From assembly GCA_045535515.1 (NCBI GenBank), contig JAZSLT010000024.1:28-64027 (forward strand): a DNA stretch of 64,000 nucleotides, read 5' to 3'. Of this stretch, positions 14,202 through 36,978 are shown in pieces; positions within the stretch are counted from its first letter, which is position 1; each line of letters starts with the position of its first letter. This stretch comes from Clostridia bacterium (GTDB lineage: Bacteria > Bacillota > Clostridia > UMGS1883 > UMGS1540). Below the pieces are notes generated by a model. The model had not been told where the DNA came from. It was given only the letters and a program-made list of their open reading frames with translations, and searched no databases. The translations under genes and the position numbers were made by a program.

Positions 14202-15422
14202 ATGATGGAAATTAAGAGGAATATTCCGTTTTCCCCTCCTGACATCAGCGAGGCGGAAATTGCGGAGGTGGCAGAGGCTCTCCGCAGCGGCTGGATTACC
14301 ACGGGGCCGAGAACGAAAGCCCTCGAAAAGAATATTGCCGCTTTTGTCGGGACAGAAAGGTGCGTATGCCTCAGTTCGCAGACGGCGTGTGCCGAAATGG
14401 CGCTTCGCGTCATGGGGATTTGCGAGGGTGACGAGGTTTTGGTGCCTGCCTATACATATACGGCCTCCGCTTCCGTTATTGCGCATGTTGGCGCAAAAAT
14501 CGTAATGATTGACTCGCAGCCGGACTCGCTTGAAATGGACTATGATGCGCTGGAGACAGCCATCACCGAAAAAACAAAGGCGATTATTCCGGTGGATATT
14601 GCCGGTATCCCTTGCGATTATGACAGAATATTTGCGATTGTCGAGCGAAAAATGCCTCTTTTTAAGCCTTGCGGTAAAATGCAGGAGGCACTCGGCCGCA
14701 TTGCCGTTATGGCCGATACGGCGCATGCCTTCGGTGCAAAAAGGTATGGCAAAATGGTCGGCTCTGTGGCAGATTTTTCAAGCTTTTCCTTCCATGCCGT
14801 CAAGAACCTTACAACCGCCGAGGGCGGCGCTTTGACTTGGAACACCATCCCCGGTATCGCGAACGAAGAGATTTATAAAAAACTGCAGCTTCTCAGCCTG
14901 CACGGCCAATCCAAGGATGCCCTCTCCAAGACGCAGCTGGGCGCGTGGGAATATGATATTGTAGACACTTTCTATAAGTGCAATATGACAGATGTTGCGG
15001 CCGCTATCGGGCTTGTGCAGTTTGCACGCTACCCGGAGATGCTCCGGCGAAGAAGGCAAATCATAGAGGCTTATGACGCGGCGCTAAGACCTCTCGGTGT
15101 GCAGACACTTGACCATTACACCGAGGAGTACACTTCCTCCGGCCACTTGTATCTTACGCGTATCCCCGGCGTTACGGAAAAAGAACGCGGCGAAATCATT
15201 ATCCGCATGGCGGAGCGCGGCATTGCCTGTAATGTTCATTACAAACCGCTTCCCATGCACACGGCATACAAAAAACGGGGCTTTGCTATCGCGGATTTCC
15301 CGAACGCCTACGCGCACTTTGCCAATGAGATTACGCTGCCGCTCCACACTCGCCTTTTGGATGCGGATGTAGCATACATAATAGATGCCTACACTTCGGT
15401 TTTGAAGGAGTACATAAAATGA
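14202..15422 (+). CDS. DegT/DnrJ sugar aminotransferase, WcfR/AatB (AATGal) type
   Basis: IPFSPPDI, LRSGWITTGP, FSFHAVKNLTTAEGG, LSLHGQSKDA and NVHYKPLP, as recalled for pneumococcal AatB and B. fragilis WcfR. Confidence 0.9.
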   Translation: MMEIKRNIPFSPPDISEAEIAEVAEALRSGWITTGPRTKALEKNIAAFVGTERCVCLSSQTACAEMALRVMGICEGDEVLVPAYTYTASASVIAHVGAKIVMIDSQPDSLEMDYDALETAITEKTKAIIPVDIAGIPCDYDRIFAIVERKMPLFKPCGKMQEALGRIAVMADTAHAFGAKRYGKMVGSVADFSSFSFHAVKNLTTAEGGALTWNTIPGIANEEIYKKLQLLSLHGQSKDALSKTQLGAWEYDIVDTFYKCNMTDVAAAIGLVQFARYPEMLRRRRQIIEAYDAALRPLGVQTLDHYTEEYTSSGHLYLTRIPGVTEKERGEIIIRMAERGIACNVHYKPLPMHTAYKKRGFAIADFPNAYAHFANEITLPLHTRLLDADVAYIIDAYTSVLKEYIK

Positions 15423-16078
15423 TGTATCGTTTTTTTAAGCGTTTTTGTGATATCGTTGTATCCCTTATGGCGATGCCGTTTGTTCTGTTAACGCTTCTTG
15501 TCTTTGCGCCTATCATCTGGCTTTCGGACCGTGGCCCTGTATTTTACAATGCAGAGCGCGTCGGGTACAAGGGAAAGGTTTTTAAGATGTATAAACTTCG
15601 TTCTATGAAGGTGAATTCTCCCAATCTTAAAAACGCCGATGGCTCGACTTATAACAGCGCCCATGACCCGCGTGTGACGAAGGTCGGTCGGCTGATGCGT
15701 AAGACCTCTATTGACGAATTTCCGCAGTTTTTTAATATGCTCAAGGGCGATATGAGCTTTGTCGGCCCCAGAGCGCATCTTACCACAAACTACAAGGGAT
15801 ACGAGTTTTTAGATGAACCACACAAAAAACGCCTCGAGGTGCGCCCCGGTATTACGGGGTACAGTCAGGCTTATTTTCGGAATGCCGCCACCTCGGAGCA
15901 GAAGATGGCAAACGATGTTTACTATGTAGAAAACATTTCCCTCTGGCTTGACATCAAGATTCTTTTTAAGACAGTATTTTCGGTACTCGCCCTCAAAAAT
16001 ATTTATGTGACCGAGGCCAATGCTGAAGGCGAGGCAATTATACAGGAAAAACAACCTACCGAGGCGGGTAAATCATGA
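15419..16078 (+). CDS. Initiating phosphoglycosyl transferase (Bac_transf family)
   Basis: KRFCD, YKLRSM, RKTSIDEFPQ, GDMSFVGPR and RPGITG motifs. Confidence 0.92.
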   Translation: MMYRFFKRFCDIVVSLMAMPFVLLTLLVFAPIIWLSDRGPVFYNAERVGYKGKVFKMYKLRSMKVNSPNLKNADGSTYNSAHDPRVTKVGRLMRKTSIDEFPQFFNMLKGDMSFVGPRAHLTTNYKGYEFLDEPHKKRLEVRPGITGYSQAYFRNAATSEQKMANDVYYVENISLWLDIKILFKTVFSVLALKNIYVTEANAEGEAIIQEKQPTEAGKS

Positions 16079-17265
16079 AAAAATTGCTTATCATCGGCGC
16101 GTCCATCTTGCAGCTCCCTGCTATCAAAAAAGCGAAGGAAATGGGGTTTCATGTGGGCGTTGTTGACTATAATCCAAGTGCCGTAGGCGTGCCGCTTGCA
16201 GACGAGTTCTTCTGCGTTTCCACCATTGATATTGAAGGTGTGGTAGAGGTTGCGGAAACTTTCCGTCCAGACGGTATTATGACGCTTGCTACCGATATGC
16301 CGATGCGCTCTATTGCGGCGGCGTGCGAAAGACTTGACCTTCCCGGCATCTCTCCCGAAACGGCGCTTAAATCTACGGATAAAGGCGAAATGATAAAGTG
16401 CTTTAAGGAGCATGGAGTGGAGCATCCGTGGTACTTTATCCTGCAGTCGCCCGATGCGTTGGACAGCATAAAAGAGGAGATTTCCTATCCGTGTATTACC
16501 AAACCCACCGATAATTCCGGAAGCCGCGGCGTTATGCTGGTGCATACGGAAAAGGAGCTTAGGGAAGCTGTCGCATACAGCGCAGAAAACGGGCGCGGTG
16601 GCGGCGTTATCGTGGAAGAATACATGCGTGGCCCCGAGGTTAGCGTGGAGATAGTTGTCACAGATGGCAAGCCCCATGTACTGCAAGTCACCGATAAGCT
16701 GACTACCGGCGCACCGCACTTTGTAGAAATGGGGCATAGCCAGCCCAGCAGGCTTTGCGCGGGCGACCTGAATAAGATACGGGACCTTGCCAAAAGAGCC
16801 GTGATAGCGGTTGGAATTCAAAACGGCCCTGCACATGTGGAGATAATTCTCACAAAAGACGGGCCGAAGATGGTAGAGCTCGGTGCCCGTATGGGGGGCG
16901 ACTGTATTACAACGCACCTCGTTCCGCTTTCCACCGGAATTGACATGATAGAGGCGACCATCCAGATTGCTTGCGGCGAGACGCCGGATATTACGCCGAG
17001 GTACGAAAAGGGAAGTGCCATTCGTTTTCTCGATGCACCTTCCGGCACGATTGCCGCTATTGAAGGTGTAGAAGAAGCGAAAACGATAGATGGTGTCTGT
17101 GAGATATCCTTTACGAAGGGTTTGGGTGATACCGTCGGCAATATCGGCTCCAGTACCGACAGAACAGGCTTTGTCATAGCGCAGGCCGACACGGCAGCAG
17201 ATGCCGCCAAGGTTTGCGAGAGGGCATTGGGAGAAATAAAAATAGCGACAGAGCCAATGTCTTAA
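16075..17265 (+). CDS. ATP-grasp ligase (amino-acid/amide ligase-like)
   Basis: KPTDNSGSRGV, VEEYMRGPEVSVE, HVEIIL and ELGARMGG motifs. Confidence 0.88.
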   Translation: MKKLLIIGASILQLPAIKKAKEMGFHVGVVDYNPSAVGVPLADEFFCVSTIDIEGVVEVAETFRPDGIMTLATDMPMRSIAAACERLDLPGISPETALKSTDKGEMIKCFKEHGVEHPWYFILQSPDALDSIKEEISYPCITKPTDNSGSRGVMLVHTEKELREAVAYSAENGRGGGVIVEEYMRGPEVSVEIVVTDGKPHVLQVTDKLTTGAPHFVEMGHSQPSRLCAGDLNKIRDLAKRAVIAVGIQNGPAHVEIILTKDGPKMVELGARMGGDCITTHLVPLSTGIDMIEATIQIACGETPDITPRYEKGSAIRFLDAPSGTIAAIEGVEEAKTIDGVCEISFTKGLGDTVGNIGSSTDRTGFVIAQADTAADAAKVCERALGEIKIATEPMS

Positions 17266-17346: not shown

Positions 17347-18471
17347 GTGAATAAAAAAATCGGCATATTGACATTTGCTTATTCCAGCAATCCCGGTTCT
17401 GTTCTACAGGCGTATGCTTTGCAAAAAACCATAACGGAAATAGAGGGTTATACAGCGTTTATTGTAAATTATCAAAAAACGGCGGCTGACCGTCCGATTT
17501 TTGGCAAGAATGTATTTTTTGGCCCCGTCCGCAGTTGGACGGCGAAAAAAGTGATAGGGTGGACCGCTCGATGCCTTGCTTACCCCGTACGCATGCGCAA
17601 ATATAACAAATTTTTTGGCAGATATTACAATGGCGACCCCAAAAAGAGGCCGTGCCCGAAGGAAGAACTTTCAAAGCTTGGGGAATCATATGATGCCTTT
17701 GTGGTGGGGAGTGACCAGATTTGGAATTTTGACAGTATAAATGTGGATACCACCTATTTTCTTGATTTTGTCCAAAATGGTGCCAAAAAAATATCGTATG
17801 CAGCAAGCTTAGGCGGAAACGGCATTCCCCAAAATAAAATAGAAACAGTTGCGGCCTTACTCAAGGATTTTTCCGCGGTTTCTGTGCGTGAAAAAAGCAG
17901 TATCGAAGTCGTGGAACCGTTCACAAAGGTTCCTGTCAAATGGGTTTTAGACCCTTCTCTGCTATTGGATAAGGAATGGAACGAGATGGCGGTTACGCCT
18001 CGCGAAAAGAAATATGTATTCCTATATCTTCGGGAGGACTCGGCGTATTTAGAAGACTTTGCTAAAAAACTTGCCGAAAAATATGGTCTGCAGGTGATTA
18101 AGGTCGTACTGCATTGGAAATGTGATGGGCGCGGAAGAAGGCAAAAAGCCATGGGACCGCTCCAGTGGCTTGGCTATATGAAAAACGCAGACTATGTGGT
18201 AACGAACAGCTTTCATGGTATATGCTTTTCCATCGCCCATAGAAAAGAATTTTTTGTCGGCTTGCTCAAAGGAAACCGGGATTTCACAAATCCGCGTATT
18301 TCCGATGTGCTAGCGCAGTTTGGATTATCCGACCGTTGTATTGACAATGTGGATATTGAAAATCTTTCTCCGATAAATTACGAAGCCGTTGATGCGTTTT
18401 TGGAGGAACGAAAACAGTTTTCTTTGGCCTATTTAAAAAATGCACTAAAGGGAGTAACCGATGAAAAATAG
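17347..18471 (+). CDS. Polysaccharide pyruvyl transferase family protein
   Basis: GSVLQAYAL, VGSDQIW, SYAASLG, SVRE, DPSLL and TNSFHG motifs. Confidence 0.9.
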   Translation: MNKKIGILTFAYSSNPGSVLQAYALQKTITEIEGYTAFIVNYQKTAADRPIFGKNVFFGPVRSWTAKKVIGWTARCLAYPVRMRKYNKFFGRYYNGDPKKRPCPKEELSKLGESYDAFVVGSDQIWNFDSINVDTTYFLDFVQNGAKKISYAASLGGNGIPQNKIETVAALLKDFSAVSVREKSSIEVVEPFTKVPVKWVLDPSLLLDKEWNEMAVTPREKKYVFLYLREDSAYLEDFAKKLAEKYGLQVIKVVLHWKCDGRGRRQKAMGPLQWLGYMKNADYVVTNSFHGICFSIAHRKEFFVGLLKGNRDFTNPRISDVLAQFGLSDRCIDNVDIENLSPINYEAVDAFLEERKQFSLAYLKNALKGVTDEK

Positions 18472-19669
18472 TTGTGTACAGGTGCAGGATAAACATCTTT
18501 GCTGTGGCTGCGAAGGATGTGCCAATGCGTGTCCGAAGGATGCCATTACTTTCGCAGAAGATGAATACGGCTTTATCTACCCTTTGGTAGATAAGGATGT
18601 TTGCATAGATTGTGGCAAATGTGTTAAGGTTTGTCCCATTTTGGGAGAGGAAAAGAATAAAGAAAGGCCTATTCGCGCATATGCGGCGGTAAATAAGGCG
18701 ATTTCCGTATTGCAGCAGAGTAGTTCCGGCGGCGTGTTTTCGGCAGTTGCCGGCTATGTTCTCGGGCGCGGCGGTGCTGTATGCGGATGCGTGCTGGATG
18801 AGAAGCTTCGGGCTATACATATATGCACCGAAAAGGAAACGGATATTGTGCGTATGCGCGGGTCAAAGTATGTGCAGAGCAATATCGGAAATGTTTTCCG
18901 CGAGGTGGCTGAACGCATTAAGAATGGACAAATGGTGCTTTTTACAGGAACACCTTGCCAGGTAGCCGCTTTATATAGTGTTTTGGGAAACAAGGCATGC
19001 GAAAACCTTATTACCATGGACCTTGTCTGTCACGGCGTGCCGAGTGCGCGTATGTTCAAAAAATACATAGAGTATTTAGAAAAAAAGCATCACAAAAAGA
19101 TTGTGAAATTCAAGTTTCGCAACAAAAAATACGGATGGCAACGGTGGACGACTTCATATATCGACGAAGATGGCCGCGAAAAGAATCTGGGTAAAACAAG
19201 TGAATTTTATATTCCGTCATTTACCGGTGGGAATATTATGCGTCCATCGTGCTTTACTTGCAAATTTGCTTGCCCCGAACGCGTGGGCGATATTACGGTA
19301 GGAGATTTCTGGGGACACGAAAAAATCAACTTGGCGTGTAATACGGAGCAAGGCGTGTCAATTTGTACATTGAATACAGATAAAGCGATTTCTCTATTCC
19401 AGTATCTGTCGGAGCACCTTTTTTTACAGGAGATAGATTATAACATAGCTGTAAAAGGAAACAGATGTCTGCATAAGCCCACAGAAAAAGGGGATAAGTG
19501 GGACCTGTATATGGATGCGCTGAAAAACGATAACATCAAAAATGTTGCTGAAAGATACATTAAGAAGAACAAAAAGAAAATTCTGCGCGAAAAACTGAAA
19601 ATGTTTGTTCCCTATAAAATTTTCACCTTGATAAGAAAGAAAAAATATGGGCAAAAGGATGTTGGATAA
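18461..19669 (+). CDS. FrhB-like (F420 hydrogenase beta domain) protein with 2x[4Fe-4S] ferredoxin
   Basis: CCGCEGCANACP, CIDCGKCVKVCP, SSSGG, GSKYVQS, GTPCQ, CHGVPS and RPSCFTC motifs. Confidence 0.88.
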   Translation: MKNSCVQVQDKHLCCGCEGCANACPKDAITFAEDEYGFIYPLVDKDVCIDCGKCVKVCPILGEEKNKERPIRAYAAVNKAISVLQQSSSGGVFSAVAGYVLGRGGAVCGCVLDEKLRAIHICTEKETDIVRMRGSKYVQSNIGNVFREVAERIKNGQMVLFTGTPCQVAALYSVLGNKACENLITMDLVCHGVPSARMFKKYIEYLEKKHHKKIVKFKFRNKKYGWQRWTTSYIDEDGREKNLGKTSEFYIPSFTGGNIMRPSCFTCKFACPERVGDITVGDFWGHEKINLACNTEQGVSICTLNTDKAISLFQYLSEHLFLQEIDYNIAVKGNRCLHKPTEKGDKWDLYMDALKNDNIKNVAERYIKKNKKKILREKLKMFVPYKIFTLIRKKKYGQKDVG

Positions 19670-20952
19670 TGGAGAATCTAAAAGGAAAGCGGCTTATCAT
19701 TCTTGGCGGCACCTCGGCGTCGTATGACCTTGTGCGTAATGCGAGGGAAATGGGGATATATACGATTGTTACCGACCCTAACGCGACAGGGGTATCCAAG
19801 GAGATTGCGGACGATACGGCCATGGTGAGTACAGCGGATGTGGATGCCGTCATAAAACTCGCAAAAGAAAAGAATGCTGACGGCATTTTCTGCGGTCCTT
19901 CCGAGTTTAATCTGCGCAATGTTATTGCAGCTTGCACAAAAGCCGGCCTTCCTTGTTATACGACGATGGATGTATGGGACAAGTGTGCAAATAAGGATGT
20001 GTTTAAATCTTATTGCCGTGCATATGGGGTAGACTGCACACCCGAATATAATATTACATTGGATACACCGGACAGCGAGCTTGTAAAGATAGAGTATCCT
20101 ATCATCATAAAGCCTGTTGACGGTTGCAGTTCTGCGGGCATCTCGGTCTGTAAGTCCGCGGCAGATGTGCCAAAAGCTTGTAAGAGGGCGTATGCCGCTT
20201 CCAAATCAAAAAAGATAATTGCGGAAAAGTATATTGAAAATGGCGGAGAGATTTTCAGCGTTCGTTATATGCTTCGGGACGGGGAAGCGTATCCGTACTT
20301 TATGATGGATACCTATGTGGCTGACCCTATTCACCGCACGAGCCTTATAAGCGGATATACGCATGCGCCTTCCAAATATGCGGCGTATTATATGCAGTAC
20401 ATGGATAAAGATGTTCGCCGTATGCTGAAAGGCATGGGACTTAAAAACGGAACTGCTTTTATCCAGTCACTTCCGTATAAGGGGAAGATATATTTCCATG
20501 AGATGGGACACAGGCTTAGCGGGGGAATGATATTTAAGCTTACAGAACCTCTTGTCGGCGTCCACGACATGAAAATGATGCTCCGATATGCTGTCGGTGG
20601 AGGAAGTATCACCGAAGAGGAAACGGCAAAAATAGACCTTTCATGCCATGGGCGTATAGGCGGGCAGCTTATGATGCCGCTTGATGTTGGAACGATAGGA
20701 AGTATTGAGGGCGTAGAAAGAATAAAAGAGAACCCTGCGGTTGTCGATTATTTGCAGTATTATAACATTGGGGATACGATAGAACAACGAATTATAGGAA
20801 CACTTGGTCAGCATTTCGGACGCATTACCTTTATCGTGGATTCTCACGAGGAGGAATTGGAGATTATTCAATATTTTCAGAATACAATTCGCGTTTACGA
20901 TGTTGGCGGCAAACGCATGAATAATTTGCAATTTGATATTTCGAGATTCTGA
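19669..20952 (+). CDS. ATP-grasp domain protein
   Basis: YPIIIKPVDGCSSAGI, IAEKYI and FHEMGHRLSGG motifs. Confidence 0.85.
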   Translation: MENLKGKRLIILGGTSASYDLVRNAREMGIYTIVTDPNATGVSKEIADDTAMVSTADVDAVIKLAKEKNADGIFCGPSEFNLRNVIAACTKAGLPCYTTMDVWDKCANKDVFKSYCRAYGVDCTPEYNITLDTPDSELVKIEYPIIIKPVDGCSSAGISVCKSAADVPKACKRAYAASKSKKIIAEKYIENGGEIFSVRYMLRDGEAYPYFMMDTYVADPIHRTSLISGYTHAPSKYAAYYMQYMDKDVRRMLKGMGLKNGTAFIQSLPYKGKIYFHEMGHRLSGGMIFKLTEPLVGVHDMKMMLRYAVGGGSITEEETAKIDLSCHGRIGGQLMMPLDVGTIGSIEGVERIKENPAVVDYLQYYNIGDTIEQRIIGTLGQHFGRITFIVDSHEEELEIIQYFQNTIRVYDVGGKRMNNLQFDISRF

Positions 20953-20975: not shown

Positions 20976-22334
20976 ATGCCATCAGCATTCATTTATCTCG
21001 GCATCATGCTTGCCGTGATTGTCGTATGGTTTATGCTCTTTAAAAGGCCGGTTTACGAAGCGGTTTTATTGAGCTTTATCGTACTGCTTACGGTTACGGG
21101 TCAATGGGCAAATGTATTCACTTACATAAACGATAGCTTGTCTACTTCTCTGCTTTATTCGATGACGGCATTTGTGGCGATGTCCATTGTGATGACGAAA
21201 ACGAAGATAATCGACGGCTGTGTTGCTATCATTTTGTCCCTTCTCGGCAGAGTACCCGGCGGCGCGGGGTATGTTTCGGTTATTGCCTCCAGCTTTATGG
21301 GGGCGCTATCCGGAAGCGGCCCCGGTAATGTTATGGCAACCGGAGCCATCACCATTCCCGCTATGAAGAAGTCGGGATTTCCCGCAGAGCTTGCCGCAAA
21401 TATTGAAAGCAACGCAAGCTATATGGGCAATATGATTCCGCCTTCCTCCAATATCGTGGCGGCGCTCGGTGCCTTTACCGCGCTTTATCCTAAGTCAGAC
21501 ATGACCACGGGCCAGTTCTGGATAGTCCTTTGGGGCATATCACTCTGGTTTGTTTTGCAACGACTTTTAATGGTTTTTGCATTCTGCAAATATTACAAGG
21601 TCAAGCCTATGGCAAAGACAGACCTGCCCGATTTCAGGGCTTCTCTGAAAGAAAACTGGCAAGGACTTTTACTTCCCGTTATTATTTTGCTCCCCTTTGT
21701 TTTGGATTATTTCTTCAAAGAAACCTTCTTTGCCGCGCGCCTCGGGGCCCAGGGGGCAAAGTATCTTTCCAGCAGTTTACTTTTGTTTATTCCCGGCGTA
21801 GCCACCATTTTTGCGTGCCTTATTACGAAGGATAAAAAGATGGTCACACCCCATAATATAGCCAAAATGTTTGCAGAGGGCGTAAAATCTATTGCCCCTG
21901 CCATCGGCGTTTGCATTTTCGGTTATATGGTCGGCTCGTTATTCGGGGACATCAATGTTGCCTCTGAGATGGAAAGCTTTATCCTCGGTGTCCGTTTCAG
22001 TAAGTTCGGTCTAGTCTGCTTCATCTCGCTTCTGACCTGTTTCCTTGGTATGATAATTCCCGGCTCGTCGCTGGTTGTCATCTTTGGCCCTGTGTTTATC
22101 ACTACACTTTCCTCGGTCGGTGTAAATCCCGTGCTTGCGGCCGCAATGCTCCCCTGCATTTGCGGTGTTATGTGCGGAATCACACCGCCGCTTGGCCTTG
22201 GCATGTATGCCGGCATGTCGCTTGCAGAATCGGAATTTAACAAGACATTTAAGAATAATCTCTGGTGGGTGGCAGCGCAGTATATCATGGAAGTTGTTAT
22301 CTTGATGGGATGGCTGCCCATCCTCGGATTATAA
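20976..22334 (+). CDS. TRAP transporter large permease (DctM-like)
   Basis: Many hydrophobic segments; GRVPGG, GALSGSG, TIPAMKKSG, MIPPS and GITPPLG motifs. Confidence 0.8.
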   Translation: MPSAFIYLGIMLAVIVVWFMLFKRPVYEAVLLSFIVLLTVTGQWANVFTYINDSLSTSLLYSMTAFVAMSIVMTKTKIIDGCVAIILSLLGRVPGGAGYVSVIASSFMGALSGSGPGNVMATGAITIPAMKKSGFPAELAANIESNASYMGNMIPPSSNIVAALGAFTALYPKSDMTTGQFWIVLWGISLWFVLQRLLMVFAFCKYYKVKPMAKTDLPDFRASLKENWQGLLLPVIILLPFVLDYFFKETFFAARLGAQGAKYLSSSLLLFIPGVATIFACLITKDKKMVTPHNIAKMFAEGVKSIAPAIGVCIFGYMVGSLFGDINVASEMESFILGVRFSKFGLVCFISLLTCFLGMIIPGSSLVVIFGPVFITTLSSVGVNPVLAAAMLPCICGVMCGITPPLGLGMYAGMSLAESEFNKTFKNNLWWVAAQYIMEVVILMGWLPILGL

Positions 22335-22346: not shown

Positions 22347-22640
22347 ATGAAAGTATTTTTTAAAAAGATTTCCGCAGTATGCAAAATAGTATTCGGATAC
22401 AGTATTATGCTTACCCTTTTCATGGGAGGACTAACCTTCTTTGGCTATCTTCTGGCCCTTATCCTGGGTGGAGATGTGGCCGCTGGACTCTGTGCATTTA
22501 TGTATAAGAAAATTATTCCCGTTATGATTTATATAAACACGATAACAGTGCTGTTTGGCTTGGTTTCTATGTATCTGGCGGGTGAGGTGGCGCTTGCCCC
22601 CGACAAAAAGAAGGCGTCAAAGCGCGAGGGGGAGAGATAA
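22347..22640 (+). CDS. Small membrane protein, possible TRAP small-subunit analogue
   Basis: AAGGAGG RBS; 2-3 hydrophobic segments; directly follows the DctM-like gene. Confidence 0.7.
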   Translation: MKVFFKKISAVCKIVFGYSIMLTLFMGGLTFFGYLLALILGGDVAAGLCAFMYKKIIPVMIYINTITVLFGLVSMYLAGEVALAPDKKKASKREGER

Positions 22641-24880: not shown

Positions 24881-24894
24881 TAAGAGGAGTTTGT

Positions 24895-30353: not shown

Positions 30354-30422
30354 ACTAAACAGCCGGCGTAAATTTTAAGATTTGTGAGCGGGATGTATTG
30401 CGCCGTATATGGAGGGGAAACG

Positions 30423-31685
30423 ATGCGAGAATTACAACAACAAAATAAAAAGCCGATTAATATATATTCTTCTCTGGTGTTTTTTTATGTGGTAAGCGCC
30501 ATAGCCTTTGAGTGTACGCCGGAAACAGCGCGCATATCCACGCTTGCTATTTACGCGGTGTTTTTTGCCGGTTTGTTATATATGTATTTGCACCAAAAAA
30601 TGAAACTGAATATGTATGTAGTGTCCATAATTGTCATGAGTCTATATGTCTATACCCGCGCTTTTGCCACTACAACATCGGCTTCTACAGGGCTTAGAAC
30701 AGCCTATGTTTTCCTGACCTGTAGTGCGTTATGTGTCGTTATTTTCTGGCTTTCTATCCGCTATGGGGAAGTTATAAAAGCCATCCTGTCAGCCAATATC
30801 TTGGGTTCCCTTATTTTGTCAGCCCGAATTATCGAAGCATACGGCGGAATAGCAGAAATCATAGACCGCGCTTCGAATACAGATGTGGAATTCCGTATAG
30901 GGAAACTCATTACAAACGAAAATGCAATCGGTATATTTCTCGCCAGCGCAGTTCTTGCCAGTGTGACCATGCTTCTTATAAAGAAAAGAAAAGCACCCTA
31001 CAAAATACTTATAGGTTTATGCATTGCCATATTCGTTGTTATGTTGCTTTTGACAGGCTCTCGCAAGGCTCTTTTGTTTGCAGTTGCCGGGACCATTTTC
31101 TTCTTGTTGCTTGTGTACCGGAAAGAGAAAATCATGAAAAAAATTGTGCTCTGGACCATGATTGCCGGCGCCCTGATAGGACTTGTGTATCTTTTGCGGA
31201 ATGTATCGATTTTCGGGACAATATACAAAAGATTTGAATTGTTGTTTGAAGGTCTTTTCGGCGAAAAAACATATAAAACGGACCGGGTAAGAGAGTATAT
31301 GATATCGACCGGATTGTCAGACTTTATAGACAGCCCGTTTTTTGGTAAAGGTGCAGGCCGGTCTTTTCAGTTATTCCGTACTTATTCGCACAATAATTTC
31401 GTGGAACTCCTCATGAATTATGGCGTATTAGGATTTATGTTATACTATGTCCCATACTTCTTGCTACTGATTAACCTCGCAAAGCGTTCTTTCCGCGGGG
31501 ATATTTATGCGATGTACTTCTTGGTGTATATAACCATGCAGCTGGTACTTGGATTTGGTTGGGTGAACTATTATGACAGAACCTGCCAGCTCGTCACAGC
31601 TGCCGCTTGGGGATATCTTACCGGTTGTCTTGAAAGGGAAGGGAGGGAGCTGCATGAAGGTGACCAGCCTGTTCAAACCCCGTAA
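30423..31685 (+). CDS. Wzy / O-antigen ligase family membrane protein, copy 2
   Basis: Colinear paralog of 29100..30353; GGAGG RBS. Confidence 0.85.
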   Translation: MRELQQQNKKPINIYSSLVFFYVVSAIAFECTPETARISTLAIYAVFFAGLLYMYLHQKMKLNMYVVSIIVMSLYVYTRAFATTTSASTGLRTAYVFLTCSALCVVIFWLSIRYGEVIKAILSANILGSLILSARIIEAYGGIAEIIDRASNTDVEFRIGKLITNENAIGIFLASAVLASVTMLLIKKRKAPYKILIGLCIAIFVVMLLLTGSRKALLFAVAGTIFFLLLVYRKEKIMKKIVLWTMIAGALIGLVYLLRNVSIFGTIYKRFELLFEGLFGEKTYKTDRVREYMISTGLSDFIDSPFFGKGAGRSFQLFRTYSHNNFVELLMNYGVLGFMLYYVPYFLLLINLAKRSFRGDIYAMYFLVYITMQLVLGFGWVNYYDRTCQLVTAAAWGYLTGCLEREGRELHEGDQPVQTP

Positions 31686-32559
31686 ATGGGTAGCGCATCT
31701 CCTGCGAAAGCGCGTTTCAAGGAAATTTTCCGACAAGGTCTATCTCATTTTGGAATATTATGCCTATATGGGGAAAAAATTAAGTTTCAAAGCGCCCAGA
31801 AGCTTTAACGAAAAACTGCAGTGGCTGAAACTTTATGACAGAAACCCGGAATATACAAAAATGGTAGACAAGTATGCCGCAAAAGAATATGTGGCCGGCA
31901 TCATAGGAGAGGAATATATTATTCCTACTTTAGGTGTCTGGGAAAGGTTTGACGATATTGACTTTGCATCTTTACCGGATAAGTTCGTCCTCAAATGCAC
32001 CCATGATAGCGGAGGCCTTGTGATTTGCCGTGATAAGAGTGCGCTTGACATGGAGGCAGCACGGGCAAAAATTGAGCGGGCAATGCGGAGAGACTATTTC
32101 TATGTGCATCGTGAGTGGCCATACAAAGATGTTCCAAAGCGGATTATTGCGGAGGCCTATATGGAAGACGAGGAAACAGAGGAACTGCGGGATTATAAGT
32201 TTTTCTGTTTTAATGGGGTGGCTAAGGCGCTATTTGTGGCTACAGAGCGCCAGAAAGCAGATGCCGAGGTCAAATTTGATTTCTTCGATATGAATTTTCA
32301 GCAGCTGCCTTTCAGACAAGGACATCCGCACGCTGCGGTAATGCCGGCTAAACCTATATGCTTTAATGAAATGCGGGAGCTTGCGGAAAAACTGGCAAAA
32401 AACATCCCGCACCTTCGGGTGGATTTTTATGAAGTAAACGGAAAGGTATATTTTGGAGAACTCACATTTTCCCATTTTGCCGGCATGGTTCCCTTTGAAC
32501 CCGAAGAGTGGGATTATGCTTTTGGAAACTGGATAGAGTTACCTATAAAAATGAATTAA
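31654..32559 (+). CDS. ATP-grasp amidoligase, TupA family, copy 2
   Basis: FNEKLQWLKLY, LPDKFVLKCTHDSG and RVDFY...YFGELTF motifs. Confidence 0.9.
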   Translation: MKVTSLFKPRKWVAHLLRKRVSRKFSDKVYLILEYYAYMGKKLSFKAPRSFNEKLQWLKLYDRNPEYTKMVDKYAAKEYVAGIIGEEYIIPTLGVWERFDDIDFASLPDKFVLKCTHDSGGLVICRDKSALDMEAARAKIERAMRRDYFYVHREWPYKDVPKRIIAEAYMEDEETEELRDYKFFCFNGVAKALFVATERQKADAEVKFDFFDMNFQQLPFRQGHPHAAVMPAKPICFNEMRELAEKLAKNIPHLRVDFYEVNGKVYFGELTFSHFAGMVPFEPEEWDYAFGNWIELPIKMN

Positions 32560-32575
32560 AATGTGGTGAGGCGTT

Positions 32576-34057
32576 ATGGAGTCAAGTAATATAGAACAAA
32601 AAATGGGGAGAGCAACGGCATGGTCGTCTGTTACAGAAGTTGCGTCAAAGTTGATTGCTCCCATAACAAATATGATTCTTGCCAGGCTTTTGGTGCCGGA
32701 AGCGTTTGGCGTGGTAGCAACAATCAACATGGTCATCAGCTTCGCGGATATTTTTACAGATGCTGGGTTTCAGAAGTATATCATTCAGCATGAATTTCCG
32801 GATGATGAGGCATTGGACAACAGCACCAATGTTGCGTTCTGGACAAATCTTGGGTTATCCTGCTTTATTTGTTTTTTCATTTTCCTGTTTCGTCATTCCC
32901 TTGCAGAGCTAGTCGGAAGTCCGGGCCTTGGCAATTCAATTGGTTTAGCTTCTTTTCTCATTATTATTACGGCATTTTCCAGTATTCAGACGGCCAGATA
33001 TCGTCGTGACTTAGATTTTAAAAAGCTGTTTTTTGTACGAGTCGGAACATCACTAATTCCGTTGTTTATAACTGTGCCCCTTGCCATAATTCTGCGAAAC
33101 TATTGGGCACTTTTGCTTGGTACATTTACCAGCAAAGTATTTCACGCTGTCATTCTAACGATATGGTCTAAATGGAAACCAAGAATTTTCTATCGTTTTG
33201 CATTGTTTAAGGAAATGTTTGCCTTCAGCGCGTGGACCCTACTCGAAAGCATTTCCATTTGGCTGACCTCCTATATTGGAATTTTTATTATAGGAAAATA
33301 CCTGAATGAATATTATATTGGCATTTATAAGACATCTATATCCACGGTGGATGGGTATATGGCTATTATCACAGCGGCACTTACGCCTGTTCTTTTTTCT
33401 GGGCTTTCCCGGTATCAAAATGACGAGAAAAAGTTTAAACAAACATATTATCTATTTCAGCGGCTGACTGCTCTTTTTGTTCTTCCTATGGGAATTGGAA
33501 TCTATGTTTACCGCGATTTTGTTACACAAATTCTTTTGGGAAGCCAATGGGGAGAAGCAAGTGGATTTATCGGACTATGGGGATTGACAAGCTCGTTTAC
33601 CATCGTCCTTTCAAACTTTGCCAGCGAAGTATACCGCAGCAAGGGCCAACCCAAAGTGTCGCTGTTGATGCAGATAATTCAGTTGTTATTTTTAATCCCC
33701 ACACTAATTTTCAGTATTCCGCATGGTTTTGAAACTTTGTATACAGCGCGCGCACTTGTCCGCGTTGTGACGATACTGAACGCAATGCTAATGATGCATT
33801 TTATGTTTGACTTTAAAGCCAAAGACATTTTCCTTAACATTTTCCCCATGCTTTTTTCGGCCGTCATAATGGGCGTTTGTGGATTTTTCATAAGACAACT
33901 CAGCCTTTCGGGGGTTTGGCAGTTCGCATCCGTTTTTCTCTGTATACTTCTTTACTTTGCCATTCTTTTCGTGGCATTTCCGAGAACAAGAAGAGAAATT
34001 ATAACCCGTTACATGGAAGTGAAACGAAAAAAGCCGACAAAGGCGGACATTATGTGA
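32576..34057 (+). CDS. wzx: Wzx/WzxC-like polysaccharide flippase
   Basis: ILARLLVPEAFG and DAGFQKYIIQ motifs; many transmembrane segments. Confidence 0.88.
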   Translation: MESSNIEQKMGRATAWSSVTEVASKLIAPITNMILARLLVPEAFGVVATINMVISFADIFTDAGFQKYIIQHEFPDDEALDNSTNVAFWTNLGLSCFICFFIFLFRHSLAELVGSPGLGNSIGLASFLIIITAFSSIQTARYRRDLDFKKLFFVRVGTSLIPLFITVPLAIILRNYWALLLGTFTSKVFHAVILTIWSKWKPRIFYRFALFKEMFAFSAWTLLESISIWLTSYIGIFIIGKYLNEYYIGIYKTSISTVDGYMAIITAALTPVLFSGLSRYQNDEKKFKQTYYLFQRLTALFVLPMGIGIYVYRDFVTQILLGSQWGEASGFIGLWGLTSSFTIVLSNFASEVYRSKGQPKVSLLMQIIQLLFLIPTLIFSIPHGFETLYTARALVRVVTILNAMLMMHFMFDFKAKDIFLNIFPMLFSAVIMGVCGFFIRQLSLSGVWQFASVFLCILLYFAILFVAFPRTRREIITRYMEVKRKKPTKADIM

Positions 34058-34100
34058 TAAAATAAAATTATATGCGTTAGGAATGGATGGTGAAAATATA

Positions 34101-34233: not shown

Positions 34234-34445
34234 AGGCCATCTCACATTCCAGAAGATGAACAAATTGTGGGTGAGTTTGCTATAGGGGAATATAGGGGGC
34301 ACGAAGGTCCCATCTCAAAAAGATTTCTGACGGGAAAAATGTATAAGCCCTTGGACTAAGAAGCAGTATATGAAAAGTGATGGGCTGTGGGAAGGATAAT
34401 CAAATTCTTCGGGGTGGTTTTTACGAGAGAAAGGAGCGAAATGGG

Positions 34446-34964
34446 TTGGATTTTAAGGAGATTTACGAAGCAGACATGTCTCGATATGTTTCGCGCAAAG
34501 GATACATACAAAAGTTCCATTATTATTTTAGAAAATGCCAGACCTGCCAAAACACTTTTTTGAAAAAATGGTATGGTTACCGCTTTGCAAAATTGAAAAA
34601 GAAACGAGGCTTGGAAATTCCAAAAGAAGTACAAATAGGAAAAGGATTATACCTTGGACATGCTTATAACATTACAATGAATCCCAAAGTCAGTATAGGA
34701 ATGAATTGTAATATTCACAAAGGCGTTGTTATCGGGCAAGAAAATCGTGGAAAACGAAAAGGTACACCGAAAATTGGTGACTGTGTTTGGATTGGAATTA
34801 ATGCCGCTATTGTGGGGAATATAAAAATTGGGAATGATGTGCTCATTGCGCCAAACAGTTATGTAAATTGCGATGTGCCAAGCCACTCCGTTGTATTTGG
34901 AAATCCTTGCATTATAAAGCACAAGGAAAACGCAACAGAAGGTTATATTGCAAAAGGGATTTAG
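34446..34964 (+). CDS. Hexapeptide-repeat (serine acetyltransferase-like) O-acetyltransferase
   Basis: IGKGLYLGH, CNIHKGVVIG, IGDCVWIG and DVP...VFGNP motifs; TTG start after AAGGAG; AT-rich. Confidence 0.85.
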   Translation: MDFKEIYEADMSRYVSRKGYIQKFHYYFRKCQTCQNTFLKKWYGYRFAKLKKKRGLEIPKEVQIGKGLYLGHAYNITMNPKVSIGMNCNIHKGVVIGQENRGKRKGTPKIGDCVWIGINAAIVGNIKIGNDVLIAPNSYVNCDVPSHSVVFGNPCIIKHKENATEGYIAKGI

Positions 34965-35043
34965 TATTTTCATTACAAAGATAAGCGGTGTTCTTGAAAC
35001 GACGAGCTTTATACCAAAAAAGCAATGAAAGGTGAGAAACAAA

Positions 35044-36219
35044 ATGCGATGTACCGATGCATTTGAAGCACAATACAGGCGTTCTCCGGATGGCGTAACC
35101 TTTTGCCCGTACCGGGTTTGTCCCATTGGCGCCCATGTGGACCATCAGCATGGCAAGGTCACAGGCTTTGCCATTGACAAGGGGATTCATATCGCGTATG
35201 GAGCGAAGCAGAACGGGGTTATTGAGGTCACCAGTCTGCAATTTGATAAGCGCGCGCAGTTCCATGTGAGCGCCGTACCAAAGGAAAGACAGAATGACTG
35301 GGCCGACCATCTGCGCGGTGGTGTAATGGCCTTGTCAAAAAGGTATCCGCTCTCGGTGGGGCTTTGCTGCGTGGTGGACGGGAGCCTGCCCATTGGGGGC
35401 CTGAGCAGCTCGGCAACGGTGATTATTGCCTTCTTGGCGGCATTATGTAAGGTCAATCGCATTACGCTGTCGCAGGAGGAGCTAATCCGAGCCGCGCTGG
35501 AGGCAGAAAATGAATATGTGGGGGTATCCTGCGGAAAGCTGGACCAGTGCTGCGAGGTGTATGCGAAGAAAGACCATCTATTGTATCTGGACACGCAGGA
35601 TGATAGCTTCACTTTAATTCCCCAAAACCCCGAAATGAAACCGTATCGCATCGCCGTTTTCTTTTCCGGGGTGGAGCGGTCGCTGGTCGGCTCTAAATAC
35701 AATATGCGTGTGGACGAGATTCGAAGCGCAGCGTATGCCTTAAAGGCCTATGCCGGCATGGAGTATGGGAAGTTCGGCGAAACCTACCTTAGGGAGGTGC
35801 CGCGAGAGGTGTACGAGCAGTATAAGGACAGATTGCCCGAGCCCTGGCAAAAGAGGGCCGAGCATTGGTATACGGAATCCGAGCGCGTTTTACAAGGCGT
35901 TGCTGCGTGGGAAAAGGGCGATATAGAAGCCTTTGGCCAAATCAGCTTTGCCTCCGGCAGAAGCTCTATTGAAAACTGGGAAACCGGTTCGCCCGAGCTG
36001 ATTGCCTTATACAACATTATGGAGAAAACAGAAGGTATTTACGGCGGCCGCTTTTCGGGCGCAGGCTTTCGTGGCTGCTGCATGGCTTTGGTGGACCCTG
36101 CCAAAGAGGAGGAGATACAAAAAGTGGTAACCAAAGCGTATATAAAGCAGTTCCCGGCTCTTGCCGAAAAGTTTTCTGTCCATTTTTGTAATAGTGCAGA
36201 TGGCGTGCATCTCGGATAA
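35044..36219 (+). CDS. GHMP sugar-1-kinase, galacturonokinase-like
   Basis: PYRVCPIGAHVDHQ, GLSSSA, CGKLDQ and GGRFSGAGFRGC motifs. Confidence 0.85.
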   Translation: MRCTDAFEAQYRRSPDGVTFCPYRVCPIGAHVDHQHGKVTGFAIDKGIHIAYGAKQNGVIEVTSLQFDKRAQFHVSAVPKERQNDWADHLRGGVMALSKRYPLSVGLCCVVDGSLPIGGLSSSATVIIAFLAALCKVNRITLSQEELIRAALEAENEYVGVSCGKLDQCCEVYAKKDHLLYLDTQDDSFTLIPQNPEMKPYRIAVFFSGVERSLVGSKYNMRVDEIRSAAYALKAYAGMEYGKFGETYLREVPREVYEQYKDRLPEPWQKRAEHWYTESERVLQGVAAWEKGDIEAFGQISFASGRSSIENWETGSPELIALYNIMEKTEGIYGGRFSGAGFRGCCMALVDPAKEEEIQKVVTKAYIKQFPALAEKFSVHFCNSADGVHLG

Positions 36220-36231
36220 CGGAGGAAAAAT

Positions 36232-36978
36232 ATGAAGTGTGTGATTTTGGCGGCTGGGTATGCCACAAGGCTTTATCCGCTGACGGAAAATTTCCCCAAA
36301 CCGCTTTTGAAGGTCGGGGAGAAAACGATACTTGATTGGCTACTGGATGATATACAGACGGCCGGCGTTACCGACGAATATGTGGTGATATCCAATCATA
36401 AATTCGCTTGCCATTTCGAAGAATGGGCGCGGACAAAGCCTTATCCCGTCACCGTGGTAGACGATGGAACGGAAACGAACGAAACGCGCCTTGGCGCCGT
36501 TCGGGATGTGCAATATGCAATCGAAAAGCTCGGAATAGAAAGTGATATATTGCTCCTTGCAGGGGATAATGTGTTGGATTTTAGTCTCACGGAATTTATC
36601 CGCTATGCCGAAGAAAAGAAGACCTCCTGCGTTATGCGGTATTACGAGTCGGACGCGGAAAAGCTGAAGAAAAGCGGCGTTTTGGCAGTGGACGAAAACG
36701 ACCTTGTTCTCTCGATGGAGGAAAAGCCCAAAAGTCCCTCCTCCAACTGGTGCTGTCCGCCGTTTTATTACTACACGAAAGAAGATAGCCTTTGTATTCC
36801 CGAAGGTATCCGCGCAGGCTGTGGCACAGATGCACCCGGCAGCTTTGTGGCGTGGCTTTGCCAAAAGACGAAGATGCACGCGATGGAGATGCCCGGCAAG
36901 CGATACGATATAGGAAATCTCGAAAGCTATAACAGGGTAAAGGCCGAGTATAAGGGAATCGGGACAGAAACGAAATAA
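36232..36978 (+). CDS. Sugar-1-phosphate nucleotidyltransferase
   Basis: ILAAGYATRLYP, PKPLL, AGDN, EEKP, DAPG and YDIG motifs. Confidence 0.9.
   Translation: MKCVILAAGYATRLYPLTENFPKPLLKVGEKTILDWLLDDIQTAGVTDEYVVISNHKFACHFEEWARTKPYPVTVVDDGTETNETRLGAVRDVQYAIEKLGIESDILLLAGDNVLDFSLTEFIRYAEEKKTSCVMRYYESDAEKLKKSGVLAVDENDLVLSMEEKPKSPSSNWCCPPFYYYTKEDSLCIPEGIRAGCGTDAPGSFVAWLCQKTKMHAMEMPGKRYDIGNLESYNRVKAEYKGIGTETK

Follow-up and report, generated by a model that had tools for sequence, protein, structure and literature searches.

The surface-polysaccharide operon described here raises the question of how a cell in whose genome no NDP-sugar 6-dehydrogenase was found might place uronic acids in its glycan. 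The operon lies in a 64,000-nucleotide stretch of DNA (hereafter the window) from a gut Clostridia genome (G000; 1.55 Mb, 96.8% complete). A sequence-only reading of the window had proposed a single chain, in which a DctM-like permease imports uronic acid, a galacturonokinase-type kinase and a nucleotidyltransferase activate it, and ATP-grasp ligases amidate it in a surface glycan. Of this chain, salvage was supported, amidation was consistent with the evidence, and import by the permease was not supported. No prior description of the combined import-salvage-amidate architecture was found within the limits of the literature searched. The arrangement that we consider probable from the gene sequences is a uronate salvage cassette together with TupA amidation in an acquired operon, with the permease as a separate module.

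Extent and gene content of the operon

The region 14202-36978 contains 21 open reading frames, all on the plus strand, and the claimed co-oriented run from a promoter at 14066 to a terminator at 36979 was confirmed. Most junctions overlap or are shorter than 30 nt, and the widest intergenic gap, 34058-34376, spans 319 nt, with 81 and 67 nt for the next two. The plus-strand sigma-70-type promoter (14066..14094, TTGACA-17-TACAAT with an extended -10 TG) has 11/12 consensus matches; shuffled sequences give about one such site too, and hence the match is only consistent with a promoter. Folding of 36970-37040 gave a bidirectional intrinsic terminator (36979..37017; -21.6 kcal/mol, z -4.5), a 17-pair hairpin with an A-run and a U-run on its sides, which 0/200 shuffles equalled in stability and which a simple terminator scan did not detect. 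The hairpin is common to the operon and the convergent minus-strand gene at 37031..38176, which encodes an NTP_transf_5 protein (PF14907, 129.8 bits).

GC content is 0.42-0.49 within the island versus 0.50-0.54 in its flanks. The genes on either side, for an M14 peptidase and SHMT, are separated by 25 kb here and by 0.85 and 2.8 kb in two genomes of the same genus. The best explanation of the run is an acquired Wzx/Wzy-type surface-polysaccharide operon.

The run begins with a DegT/PseC-like sugar aminotransferase (14202..15422; PF01041, 299.8 bits; PseC model 288.6, below the 423.5 cut-off), a small initiating phosphoglycosyl transferase (Bac_transf; 15419..16078; PF02397, 207.9 bits) and a LAL-type ATP-grasp ligase (16075..17265; ATP-grasp_4 86.2 bits and LAL_C2 77.6 bits). 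These are followed by a polysaccharide pyruvyl transferase (PS_pyruv_trans; 17347..18471; PF04230, 116.3 bits), an FrhB/FdhB-like 4Fe-4S protein (18461..19669; PF04432, 80.3 bits, with Fer4 domains) and a second, divergent ATP-grasp ligase (19669..20952; CPSase_L_D2 32.7 bits, ATP-grasp 31.3 bits) that clusters with the first. Beyond the permease and its neighbor lie four GT4 glycosyltransferases (Glycos_transf_1, PF00534; 22643..23797, 146.2 bits; 23825..24880, 131.9 bits; 25785..26894, 127 bits; 28012..29100, 134.4 bits), a polysaccharide deacetylase (Polysacc_deac_1; 26904..27983; PF01522, 71.5 bits), two Wzy-type polymerases/ligases (Wzy_C, PF04932; 29082..30353, 49 bits; 30384..31685, 57.3 bits) and a Wzx flippase (Polysacc_synt_3; 32576..34057; PF13440, 280.3 bits). 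Because they match Pfam and NCBIfam families, the four GT4s, four ATP-grasp ligases (two TupA-type and two LAL-type), DctM-like permease, kinase and nucleotidyltransferase named in the earlier reading are all real.

Search for a dehydrogenase

Family searches agreed with the earlier statement that neither a UDP-glucose dehydrogenase nor an epimerase is encoded within 14202-36978. When the search for ugd was extended to the whole 96.8%-complete genome, as that reading had suggested, no NDP-sugar 6-dehydrogenase was found; PF03721 gave nothing at E<=1e-10, its matches covering profile positions 1-39 only (26.6 bits). The cassette would therefore be the sole source of activated uronate in G000. 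The genome also encodes a true GalE (447 bits, contig C36) and the uronate isomerase UxaC (700 bits), the latter indicating that free hexuronate reaches the cytoplasm. Neither a canonical galactokinase nor GalT was found in G000.

Identity of the kinase

The last three genes of the run encode a hexapeptide acetyltransferase (EpsC/CysE-like; 34377..34964; PF00132; 81.2 bits with the EpsC model, short of the cut-off), a GHMP anomeric sugar kinase (35032..36219; GalKase_gal_bdg with GHMP N and C domains) and a 248-aa RmlA/AglF-like sugar-1-phosphate nucleotidyltransferase (36232..36978; PF00483, NTP_transferase, 102.9 bits). The kinase, predicted to be a GalAK-like hexuronate 1-kinase, could instead be a galactokinase, or act at C1 of some other neutral sugar (GalNAc or L-Ara), and supply a neutral NDP-sugar to the GT4s. 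Its best family models are galactokinases, the NCBIfam model giving 209.7 bits, just under the 226.65 cut-off, as are its best solved-structure matches, and the lack of a canonical galactokinase in G000 would leave room for such a role. However, GalE is already present for UDP-Gal in this genome, and four others (G017, G020, G037 and G039) carry a canonical galactokinase alongside a member of the kinase family.

The orthologues are 57-77% identical to the window's kinase, and canonical galactokinases of the relatives just 29-36%. When 30 sequences of the kinase family were compared with four canonical galactokinases, the signature residues Glu34 and Tyr38 were replaced by Ala and His in 30/30, Gly347 by Lys/Arg in 30/30 and Ile169 by Lys/Arg in 29/30, with Arg28, Asp37, Asp171 and the GGLSSSA ATP loop retained. 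A Camellia sinensis protein named galacturonokinase, a name itself assigned by homology (UniRef100_V9QNR1), ranked within the top 150 of 1.84 billion representatives (208.6 bits; E 1e-67, with 36% identity across 404 residues) and carries matching replacements at three of these positions (Ala34, His38, Arg347). Lys/Arg169 is confined to the close subfamily (13/87 representatives) and is not found in the plant protein. In a quick ML tree, a 100% branch, 0.94 long, set six canonical galactokinases apart; the plant protein was not sister to the window's kinase family. The identity and common signature support placing the kinase with plant galacturonokinase, as the label in the earlier reading had supposed, and make a neutral-sugar kinase unlikely.

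The proposed salvage cassette in other genomes

Kinase context was sampled in other genomes and metagenomes, at 29 loci with an orthologue. In 25/29 loci a cognate nucleotidyltransferase (>=55% identity) was no more than 1.2 kb from the kinase, and an NTP_transf_5 gene like that just beyond the operon's end was a recurrent neighbor (9/29). A UDP-glucuronate 4-epimerase-like SDR was near the kinase in 19/29 loci, with no epimerase nearby in the other 10/29. The top PDB match of this epimerase was 5u4q, followed by the B. cereus UDP-glucuronate 4-epimerase (6zl6/6zld/6zll, codes confirmed in PMC11519531), with WbgU, WbpP and GalE ranking lower. It retains Tyr149, the Ser/Thr cluster and Arg185, which holds the carboxylate of UDP-GalA according to an excerpt of PMC12338863.

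A Ugd/TviB-family dehydrogenase was near the kinase in 8/29 loci, directly after it in three; in one genus the genes immediately downstream of the kinase are a Ugd of the E. coli type (646.7 bits) and this epimerase. This could mean that, where a dehydrogenase is present, the kinase serves a serial route from neutral sugar through NDP-sugar to uronate. Eight genomes argue against it (G179, G391, G348, G095, G050, G199, G021 and G039; six are 92-99% complete), in which the kinase stands beside the epimerase and no PF03721 dehydrogenase occurs genome-wide to complete the route; the genomes compared, many of them MAGs, share ancestry, so that counts overstate independence and absence of a gene from a MAG is not proof. 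The galacturonokinase signature, the conserved nucleotidyltransferase and epimerase, and the dehydrogenase-free genomes support the kinase and nucleotidyltransferase as a putative uronic-acid salvage route.

The DctM-like permease and its predicted partner

The permease (20976..22334; PF06808, 167.7 bits, profile 2-409 of 413) does not reach the NCBIfam cut-offs for dctM and TRAP_fused. Next comes a 97-aa membrane protein (22347..22640), the predicted permease partner, which matched no Pfam or NCBIfam family but has a conserved alignment. The relatives of the permease numbered 417, and loci were counted for the best 80 of them (73-88% identical); the partner follows the permease in 79/80. A complex model of the two proteins scored 0.61, a mark attained by 58/80 solved complexes and 2/110 mismatched pairs; the best of three controls scored 0.00. 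Solved structures exist for TRAP Q-M complexes, and resemblance to them may account for some of this pass. Contact agreement between runs was at least 94%, with a partner pLDDT of at least 75. No DctQ and no DctP or TAXI binding protein was found in the operon with Pfam and NCBIfam, nor a binding-protein gene among the annotated recurrent neighbors of the permease. At some permease loci the neighbors include NamZ and genes for sugar oxidoreductases, a hint of an acidic sugar as substrate.

Carriers of the DctM family take up organic acids, and uronates are substrates of some TRAP systems. Import of the kinase's uronic acid by the permease and its 97-aa partner, as first proposed, would fit this background and the NamZ loci, and the presence of UxaC means that hexuronate must be imported. 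Six genomes contain both permease and kinase, against about 2.3 expected (a weak excess), and in G024, G075 and G083, three of the five both-gene genomes other than G000, the two genes are 9-26 kb apart on one contig. However, 26/32 kinase genomes have no permease orthologue, and a complete TAXI-TRAP system is also encoded in G000, on a different contig. The steady companions of the permease are a LysR regulator (<=5 kb in 64/74 loci) and LAL-type ATP-grasp ligases (<=5 kb in 24/74), with DegT genes also frequent, and not the kinase. The kinase was within 10 kb in 1/80 permease loci, TupA likewise in 1/80, and a DctM-like gene occurred in 1/29 kinase loci. Uronate import through this permease is improbable, and the locus counts support a module separate from the kinase cassette.

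TupA ligases and possible amidation

The two TupA-like ligases lie at 24853..25758 (PF14305, 248 bits, full length), predicted to be a uronate amidoligase, and 31573..32559 (PF14305, 245.2 bits, domain from residue 80). The listed start of the second is 113 nt inside the preceding gene, so that the real start probably lies further downstream. Among 400 genomes sampled from the class, TupA was present in 53, including 15/32 genomes with the kinase versus 38/368 without it. A dehydrogenase or the kinase accompanied TupA in 51/53 genomes; the two with neither were G198 (99% complete) and G397 (91%). PF03721 was found in 36/38 TupA genomes without the kinase, and was missing from 7/15 with the kinase, G000 included. 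Put the other way, 7/9 TupA genomes without a dehydrogenase have the kinase.

The sections available of PMC11800379 report that C. jejuni Cj1438 forms, through its TupA-like domain, an amide at the glucuronate C6 carboxylate. With this precedent and the survey, amidation of uronate carboxyls by the TupA ligases is consistent with the evidence. That they amidate a pyruvyl-ketal carboxylate or another acid, with the kinase cassette an unrelated passenger at the operon end, is very unlikely: the pyruvyl transferase does offer another carboxylate, the 319-nt gap sets the last three genes apart, 22/29 kinase loci have no TupA within 10 kb and an excerpt of PMC12632600 reports diverse activities for TupA-like enzymes, but pyruvyl transferase was found in 0/29 kinase loci, seven of which have TupA, a dehydrogenase or the kinase accompanies TupA in nearly all genomes as counted above, and at loci L018 and L020 TupA and GT4 occur with the kinase and nucleotidyltransferase but no pyruvyl transferase. 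A 60-63% identical copy of the hexapeptide acetyltransferase also occurs in L018.

Comparison with known systems

In plants, galacturonic acid is salvaged by GalAK (At3g10700) and the UDP-sugar pyrophosphorylase Sloppy, as described in part of PMC8636097. The kinase here likewise belongs to the galactokinase-like branch of GHMP kinases and shares the signature changes, judged by the Camellia homologue, and would likewise precede a pyrophosphorylase step to an NDP-uronate. Unlike the plant route, the second enzyme is of the RmlA/AglF type (PF00483) and not UDPGP-type, and the genes form a bacterial operon cassette in glycan loci, many genomes lacking a de novo route. Zebrafish DrGKUP is a fusion of a glucuronokinase and a putative UDP-GlcA pyrophosphorylase, and its nucleotidyltransferase is also short and bacterial-type (~260 aa; excerpt of PMC3938481). 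Whereas DrGKUP belongs to the glucuronokinase branch, which part of PMC2823444 describes as nearly devoid of sequence identity to galacturonic acid kinase, the present cassette has two genes and a GalAK-like kinase.

Like the present operon, the C. jejuni HS:2 capsule locus encodes an ATP-grasp of the TupA-like type, the C-terminal amidoligase of Cj1438 (PMC11800379, in part), but there it is fused to a GT2, whereas two stand-alone ligases and no dehydrogenase were found here. The permease resembles TRAP (DctPQM, SiaPQM) and TAXI-TRAP systems in its full-length DctM homology and predicted small membrane partner, and differs from them in having no binding protein, no DctQ match and a partner without a family. 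The uronate source in C. jejuni HS:2 is Cj1441, a Ugd. Fkp has a role in the capsule of Bacteroides fragilis. In that gut bacterium, too, a GHMP kinase and a pyrophosphorylase put a scavenged sugar into surface glycans; unlike the two-gene cassette, Fkp is a fused protein that acts on neutral L-fucose with a GDP carrier (L-fucokinase/GDP-fucose pyrophosphorylase; PMC11982464 and PMC6468028, in excerpt).

Proposed pathway

The substrates, nucleotide, amide partners and transport direction given here are predicted. The kinase would phosphorylate free hexuronic acid at C1, most likely galacturonate and possibly glucuronate, and the short nucleotidyltransferase would convert the sugar-1-phosphate to an NDP-uronic acid, probably the UDP form. 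The repeat unit may start with an amino sugar, which the DegT enzyme would produce together with a CapD/PglF-like dehydratase encoded on another contig. The GT4 transferases would insert uronate into this unit, and the two TupA-like ligases would then amidate its C6 carboxylates. Pyruvylation, acetylation and deacetylation may decorate the unit before Wzx and Wzy export and polymerize it. The permease and its 97-aa partner would form a separate two-part acid transporter, more likely feeding an acid or amino acid to the adjacent LAL-type ligases than uronate to the kinase. Because the organism apparently has no uronic-acid synthesis of its own and carries the kinase and activating enzyme at the end of its coat operon, it probably builds scavenged uronate into its coat.

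Gene content and origin of the operon

The region 14202-36978 holds 21 ORFs, all in one direction (ORF listing of the window, with families assigned by Pfam and NCBIfam). Genes 1-3 encode a DegT aminotransferase, a small Bac_transf initiating transferase and a LAL-type ATP-grasp protein, and genes 4-6 a pyruvyl transferase, an FrhB/4Fe-4S protein and a second ATP-grasp protein. A DctM-like permease (gene 7, 20976-22334) and a 97-aa ORF without a family (gene 8, 22347-22640) follow, then GT4, GT4, TupA, GT4, polysaccharide deacetylase and GT4 genes (9-14) and two Wzy_C genes, a second TupA and Wzx (15-18). Genes 19-21 encode a hexapeptide acetyltransferase, a GHMP kinase with a galactokinase sugar-binding signature (35032-36219, +) and a 248-aa NTP_transferase (36232-36978, +); the last two are referred to here as the cassette. 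At 14066-14094 there is a near-consensus promoter whose -10 is extended, and folding against shuffled sequences gave a strong terminator hairpin at 36979-37017, with a 5' A-run and a 3' U-run (-21.6 kcal/mol, z -4.5). The gene run, promoter, terminator and gene families described in the sequence-only reading were all borne out by these ORF, profile and fold analyses.

With Bac_transf, four GT4, Polysacc_synt_3 and two Wzy_C genes, the operon is a Wzx/Wzy-type glycan locus. Its CpsC, CpsD and CpsB chain-length/tyrosine-kinase regulators are located outside the operon on another contig (C4), adjoining a 608-aa CapD/PglF-like dehydratase. Between Wzx and the acetyltransferase, 319 nt (34058-34376) contain no listed ORF of at least 80 aa and only weak plus-strand promoter-like sites; an internal start or a regulatory element serving the final three genes may lie in this gap.

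The operon is flanked by housekeeping genes, and its GC content is 0.42-0.49 versus 0.50-0.54 in the flanks, about 6-10 points lower. Here 25 kb separate the flanking genes, which encode an M14 peptidase and SHMT (insertion 13979-39039); in two genomes of the same genus the distance is 0.85 and 2.8 kb, and in three further genomes checked the pair is split between contigs. The operon is an acquired island.

Identity of the kinase

The kinase scored 209.7 bits against the galactokinase equivalog TIGR00131, below the cut-off of 226.65, and was below cut-off for the other galactokinase models as well. When 30 members of the kinase family were aligned with four canonical galactokinases, all four of which carry the canonical residues, the galactokinase signature (Gly-Arg ... 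Glu-His-x-Asp-Tyr) was found to be altered in 30/30 members, with Gly27 replaced by Tyr, Glu34 by Ala and Tyr38 by His. Asp37, the ATP loop and the catalytic residues Arg28 and Asp171 are kept, and Lys or Arg occupies position 347 in all 30 members and position 169 in 29. The signature changes amount to a net loss of one acidic residue and gain of two basic residues at positions assigned to the sugar site, which we take to be positions that contact the sugar in galactokinase structures.

The best solved relatives of the kinase are archaeal galactokinases (~135 bits). More than 8000 close homologues were found, the best 120 clusters being at least 70% identical. Cluster names include 'GHMP kinase' and, in one source, 'galactokinase/galacturonokinase'; ESM Atlas matches fell in generic 'galactokinase' and 'GHMP kinase' clusters only, and 16 of 20 proteins looked up by cluster had no name. 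Scanned in full with HMMER, 1.84 billion representatives yielded 946 matches at E<=1e-30, and the best 150 of these include a Camellia sinensis protein named galacturonokinase (GalAK) in UniRef and NCBI, a name itself assigned by homology. The kinase aligned with this protein at 36% identity over 404 residues (E 1e-67, 208 bits), versus about 107-155 bits with galactokinases of relatives, and Ala34, His38, Arg347 and a GAGFRGC motif are common to the two. The kinase is thus closer to a GalAK named by homology than to galactokinase and has the same signature, which places it in the GalAK clade. Ala34 together with His38 was present in 74 of 87 full-length representatives (30-57% identity), and the galactokinase Glu in only 4. 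Carriers of this pair, among representatives P0123-P0272 of the scan, include records labelled Pseudomonadota and Candidatus Zipacnadales.

In a quick maximum-likelihood tree, a 100% branch of length 0.94 set the canonical galactokinases apart as a single clade. A 96% branch had the window kinase family to one side; the plant protein shared that family's midpoint half without being its sister. Judged by sequence, the kinase is GalAK-like and not a galactokinase. It is predicted to carry out ATP-dependent C1 phosphorylation of D-galacturonate (EC 2.7.1.44). The GalAK-type clade is large, mostly unnamed and extends well beyond Clostridia.

Distribution and gene neighbors of the kinase

Kinase orthologues were found in 7 of 40 relatives, four of which also carry a canonical galactokinase, and in none of eight same-genus genomes. 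In the class-wide sample the kinase was carried by 32 of 399 genomes, in 19 of 216 genera, and a metagenome scan gave only four loci. Gene context was compared at 29 orthologue loci, two of them on metagenome contigs and the other 27 in genomes; of 29 newly found kinase genomes, 20 were used for this and nine, mostly on short contigs, were left out.

The sequence-only reading hinged on the permease, kinase, nucleotidyltransferase and ATP-grasp genes occurring together in other Clostridia. For the cassette this held, with a window-type nucleotidyltransferase (at least 55% identity, no more than 1.2 kb from the kinase) at 25/29 loci; a DctM-like gene was seldom found with the kinase (1/29), and TupA and LAL-type ATP-grasp genes were present at 7/29 and 3/29 loci, respectively. 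The four loci without the nucleotidyltransferase all belong to one genus. This partner is a PF00483 NTP_transferase, RmlA/AglF-like, and does not have the UDPGP-family fold of Sloppy/USP. The other neighbors were an SDR epimerase of one subfamily (19/29), a PF14907 protein (9/29) and a Ugd/TviB-type dehydrogenase (8/29); a pyruvyl transferase was found at 0/29 loci. The gene order in one genus was kinase, E. coli-type Ugd (646.7 bits), SDR epimerase and PF14907 protein.

The PF14907 gene, annotated 'uncharacterised nucleotidyltransferase', is also present in the window at 37031-38176 (-), as well as at loci L018, L021-L024, L138, L146, L153 and L154. In one genus whose loci lack the RmlA-type partner, it comes after the kinase, Ugd and epimerase. 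A membrane protein of 500-530 aa recurs at 9/29 kinase loci (L018, L020, L139, L144, L146-L148, L150 and L153), often just upstream of the kinase; it matched no Pfam or NCBIfam model and has 7-10 predicted helices. It was considered as an importer, but with this helix number and no family it is probably a divergent flippase.

Source of the activated uronate

Bacterial uronic-acid glycans are generally taken to begin with UDP-glucose dehydrogenase. The operon had been described as lacking this enzyme, and a profile search did not find it in the rest of the genome either (1.55 Mb, 96.8% complete): no member of the UDP-glucose/GDP-mannose dehydrogenase family (PF03721) was found at E<=1e-10, and the only match was to 39 Rossmann positions at 26.6 bits. 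Nor was the family found in any of the genus's eight other genomes. The window's own genome does encode a true GalE (447 bits), and searches of it found no canonical galactokinase, GalT or GH28.

The adjacency of kinase and Ugd could be read as a serial route starting from a neutral sugar, or as salvage and de novo routes meeting at one product. The subfamily of the neighboring epimerase best matched PDB entry 5u4q (372-402 bits), deposited as 'dTDP-glucose 4,6-dehydratase', followed by B. cereus UDP-glucuronate 4-epimerase entries (135-181 bits; codes given in PMC11519531), ahead of WbgU, WbpP and GalE. The catalytic Tyr149, the Ser/Thr cluster and Arg185 are kept in the alignment; according to PMC12338863, the cluster and the arginine bind the carboxylate of UDP-GlcA as well as that of UDP-GalA. 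Within eight genomes, six of them 92-99% complete, the kinase adjoins this epimerase and no PF03721 match exists genome-wide, and because of these genomes the balance tips to salvage. With a UDP-glucuronate epimerase but no dehydrogenase, a cell must get its UDP-uronate from elsewhere, most obviously from the adjacent cassette. The cassette, the epimerase, the dehydrogenase-less genomes and the GalAK-like signature together lend comparative backing to the earlier proposal that the kinase and nucleotidyltransferase would act in salvage.

PF03721 was absent from 19 of 29 additional kinase genomes. Simple complementarity of kinase and dehydrogenase was dismissed, as the two are co-located at 8/29 loci; the pattern is informative only when conditioned on the epimerase or TupA.

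Both TupA proteins gave full-length PF14305 matches, of 248 and 245 bits, which cover positions 1-240 of the 241 in the profile. PMC11800379 describes a C-terminal TupA-like domain of C. jejuni Cj1438 that forms an amide on the glucuronate C6 carboxylate, and PMC12632600 describes TupA-like enzymes as common in surface-polysaccharide loci. TupA was found in 53 of 400 class-sample genomes, and in 15 of 32 kinase genomes versus 38 of 368 others; as the genomes are related and many are MAGs, these and the following TupA counts are descriptive and not a test. PF03721 was present in 36 of 38 TupA genomes without the kinase. Of the 15 with both TupA and kinase, eight had PF03721 and seven, including the genome studied here, did not. 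The kinase was present in 7 of 9 TupA genomes without the dehydrogenase. One or the other was found in 51 of 53 TupA genomes, and this presence of a uronate source is consistent with TupA ligases that amidate uronate carboxylates of the glycan.

The permease pair and uronate import

The DctM-like permease matched PF06808 over its full length (167.7 bits), as a DctM large subunit, and scored below the NCBIfam cut-offs (105.8 bits versus 268.45). Pfam and NCBIfam searches of the operon gave no DctQ small subunit and no DctP/TAXI binding protein, and the 97-aa partner matched no family. Of 417 permease relatives detected, the best 80 were 73-88% identical and belonged to Clostridia MAGs from gut and rumen that represent several families. 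At these 80 loci, tblastn placed the 97-aa ORF after the permease in 79, the kinase nearby in one and TupA in one. Neighbor counts were made on the 74 loci where ORF clustering recognized the permease. A LysR regulator (HTH_1 + LysR_substrate) was the upstream neighbor in 62/74 and lay within 5 kb in 64/74, a glycan-type gene was within 5 kb in 33/74 and a LAL-type ATP-grasp in 24/74. Other recurrent neighbors were ATPgrasp_ST, FemAB-like GNAT, Bac_transf, DegT and RmlB-like genes, and one syntenic group had NamZ, GFO/IDH/MocA oxidoreductase, HAD and MFS genes. A binding-protein gene was absent from the recurrent neighbor clusters annotated, rare neighbors being only partly annotated, and no homologue of the LysR gene was found in the window's own genome. 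The pyruvyl transferase and the FrhB/FdhB-like 4Fe-4S protein, which overlap by 11 nt in the window (17347-19669), recur as a pair in 2-3 of the 80 permease loci.

Conservation of the 97-aa protein is good, and it resembles a membrane protein with two to three helices. A model of its complex with the permease passed, scoring 0.61 versus 0.00 for the best of three controls, a mark that 58 of 80 solved complexes and 2 of 110 mismatched pairs attained; the runs agreed in at least 94% of contacts, with a pLDDT of at least 75 for the 97-aa partner. TRAP Q-M complexes have already been solved, and part of the score may reflect likeness to them. The permease and its partner are a candidate binding-protein-free relative of TRAP transporters.

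Permease orthologues occurred in 29 of 400 genomes, six of which also had the kinase versus ~2.3 expected; in three of the five besides the window's own, both genes share a contig, at a distance of 9-26 kb. The proposal that the permease imports uronate for the kinase was not upheld at the level of gene neighborhoods, and the link is weak because the kinase is found at so few permease loci and the genome-level excess is small. The permease is a module of its own, apart from the cassette.

The genome encodes a uronate isomerase, UxaC (700 bits; contig C22, 43245-44639), so free hexuronate does get into the cytoplasm. UxaC stands alone, with no transporter, uronate catabolic genes or uronate operon at its locus (L159), and therefore gives no pointer to the importer. 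A complete TAXI-type TRAP system (contig C14, 53781-56812, locus L158; binding protein 328 bits, fused permease 664 bits) is a further acid-importer candidate.

Discussion

We propose a mechanism in which every substrate is inferred. Free hexuronate would enter the cell via a carrier, the GalAK-like kinase would convert it to uronate 1-phosphate and the short nucleotidyltransferase to NDP-uronate. A GT4 would then put the uronate into a five-sugar unit begun on a 4-amino sugar, and the two TupA ligases would amidate the carboxylates. The amino sugar is probably acylated by the LAL-type ligases, and the acid or amino acid that they use may be imported by the permease pair. Pyruvylation, acetylation and deacetylation would come last, followed by Wzx and Wzy. 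Uronate salvage combined with amidation in one glycan operon seems to us a fairly probable account.

The kinase step resembles that of plant GalAK as described in PMC8636097, and the zebrafish DrGKUP fusion (PMC3938481) also pairs a uronate kinase with a short bacterial-type nucleotidyltransferase. In 2009, 'a few bacteria' were noted to carry genes for the other kinase type, glucuronokinase (PMC2823444). A search of the main texts in a limited literature set turned up no paper that deals with a native uronate 1-kinase of bacteria or with bacterial UDP-uronate salvage.

Whether the widespread cassette (32/399 class genomes) is a true uronate salvage that replaces UDP-glucose dehydrogenase, so that some gut Clostridia build acidic amidated glycans from diet or host GalA or GlcA, we regard as evenly balanced. 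The two small cassette enzymes have a possible use in making UDP-uronic acids. A salvage route would give a function to the large, unnamed 'GHMP kinase' family, and would explain the UDP-glucuronate 4-epimerases and uronate amidoligases of dehydrogenase-less gut Clostridia. It would also tie pectin or glucuronide breakdown directly to capsule chemistry and, if true, the coat composition of those species would depend on host diet.
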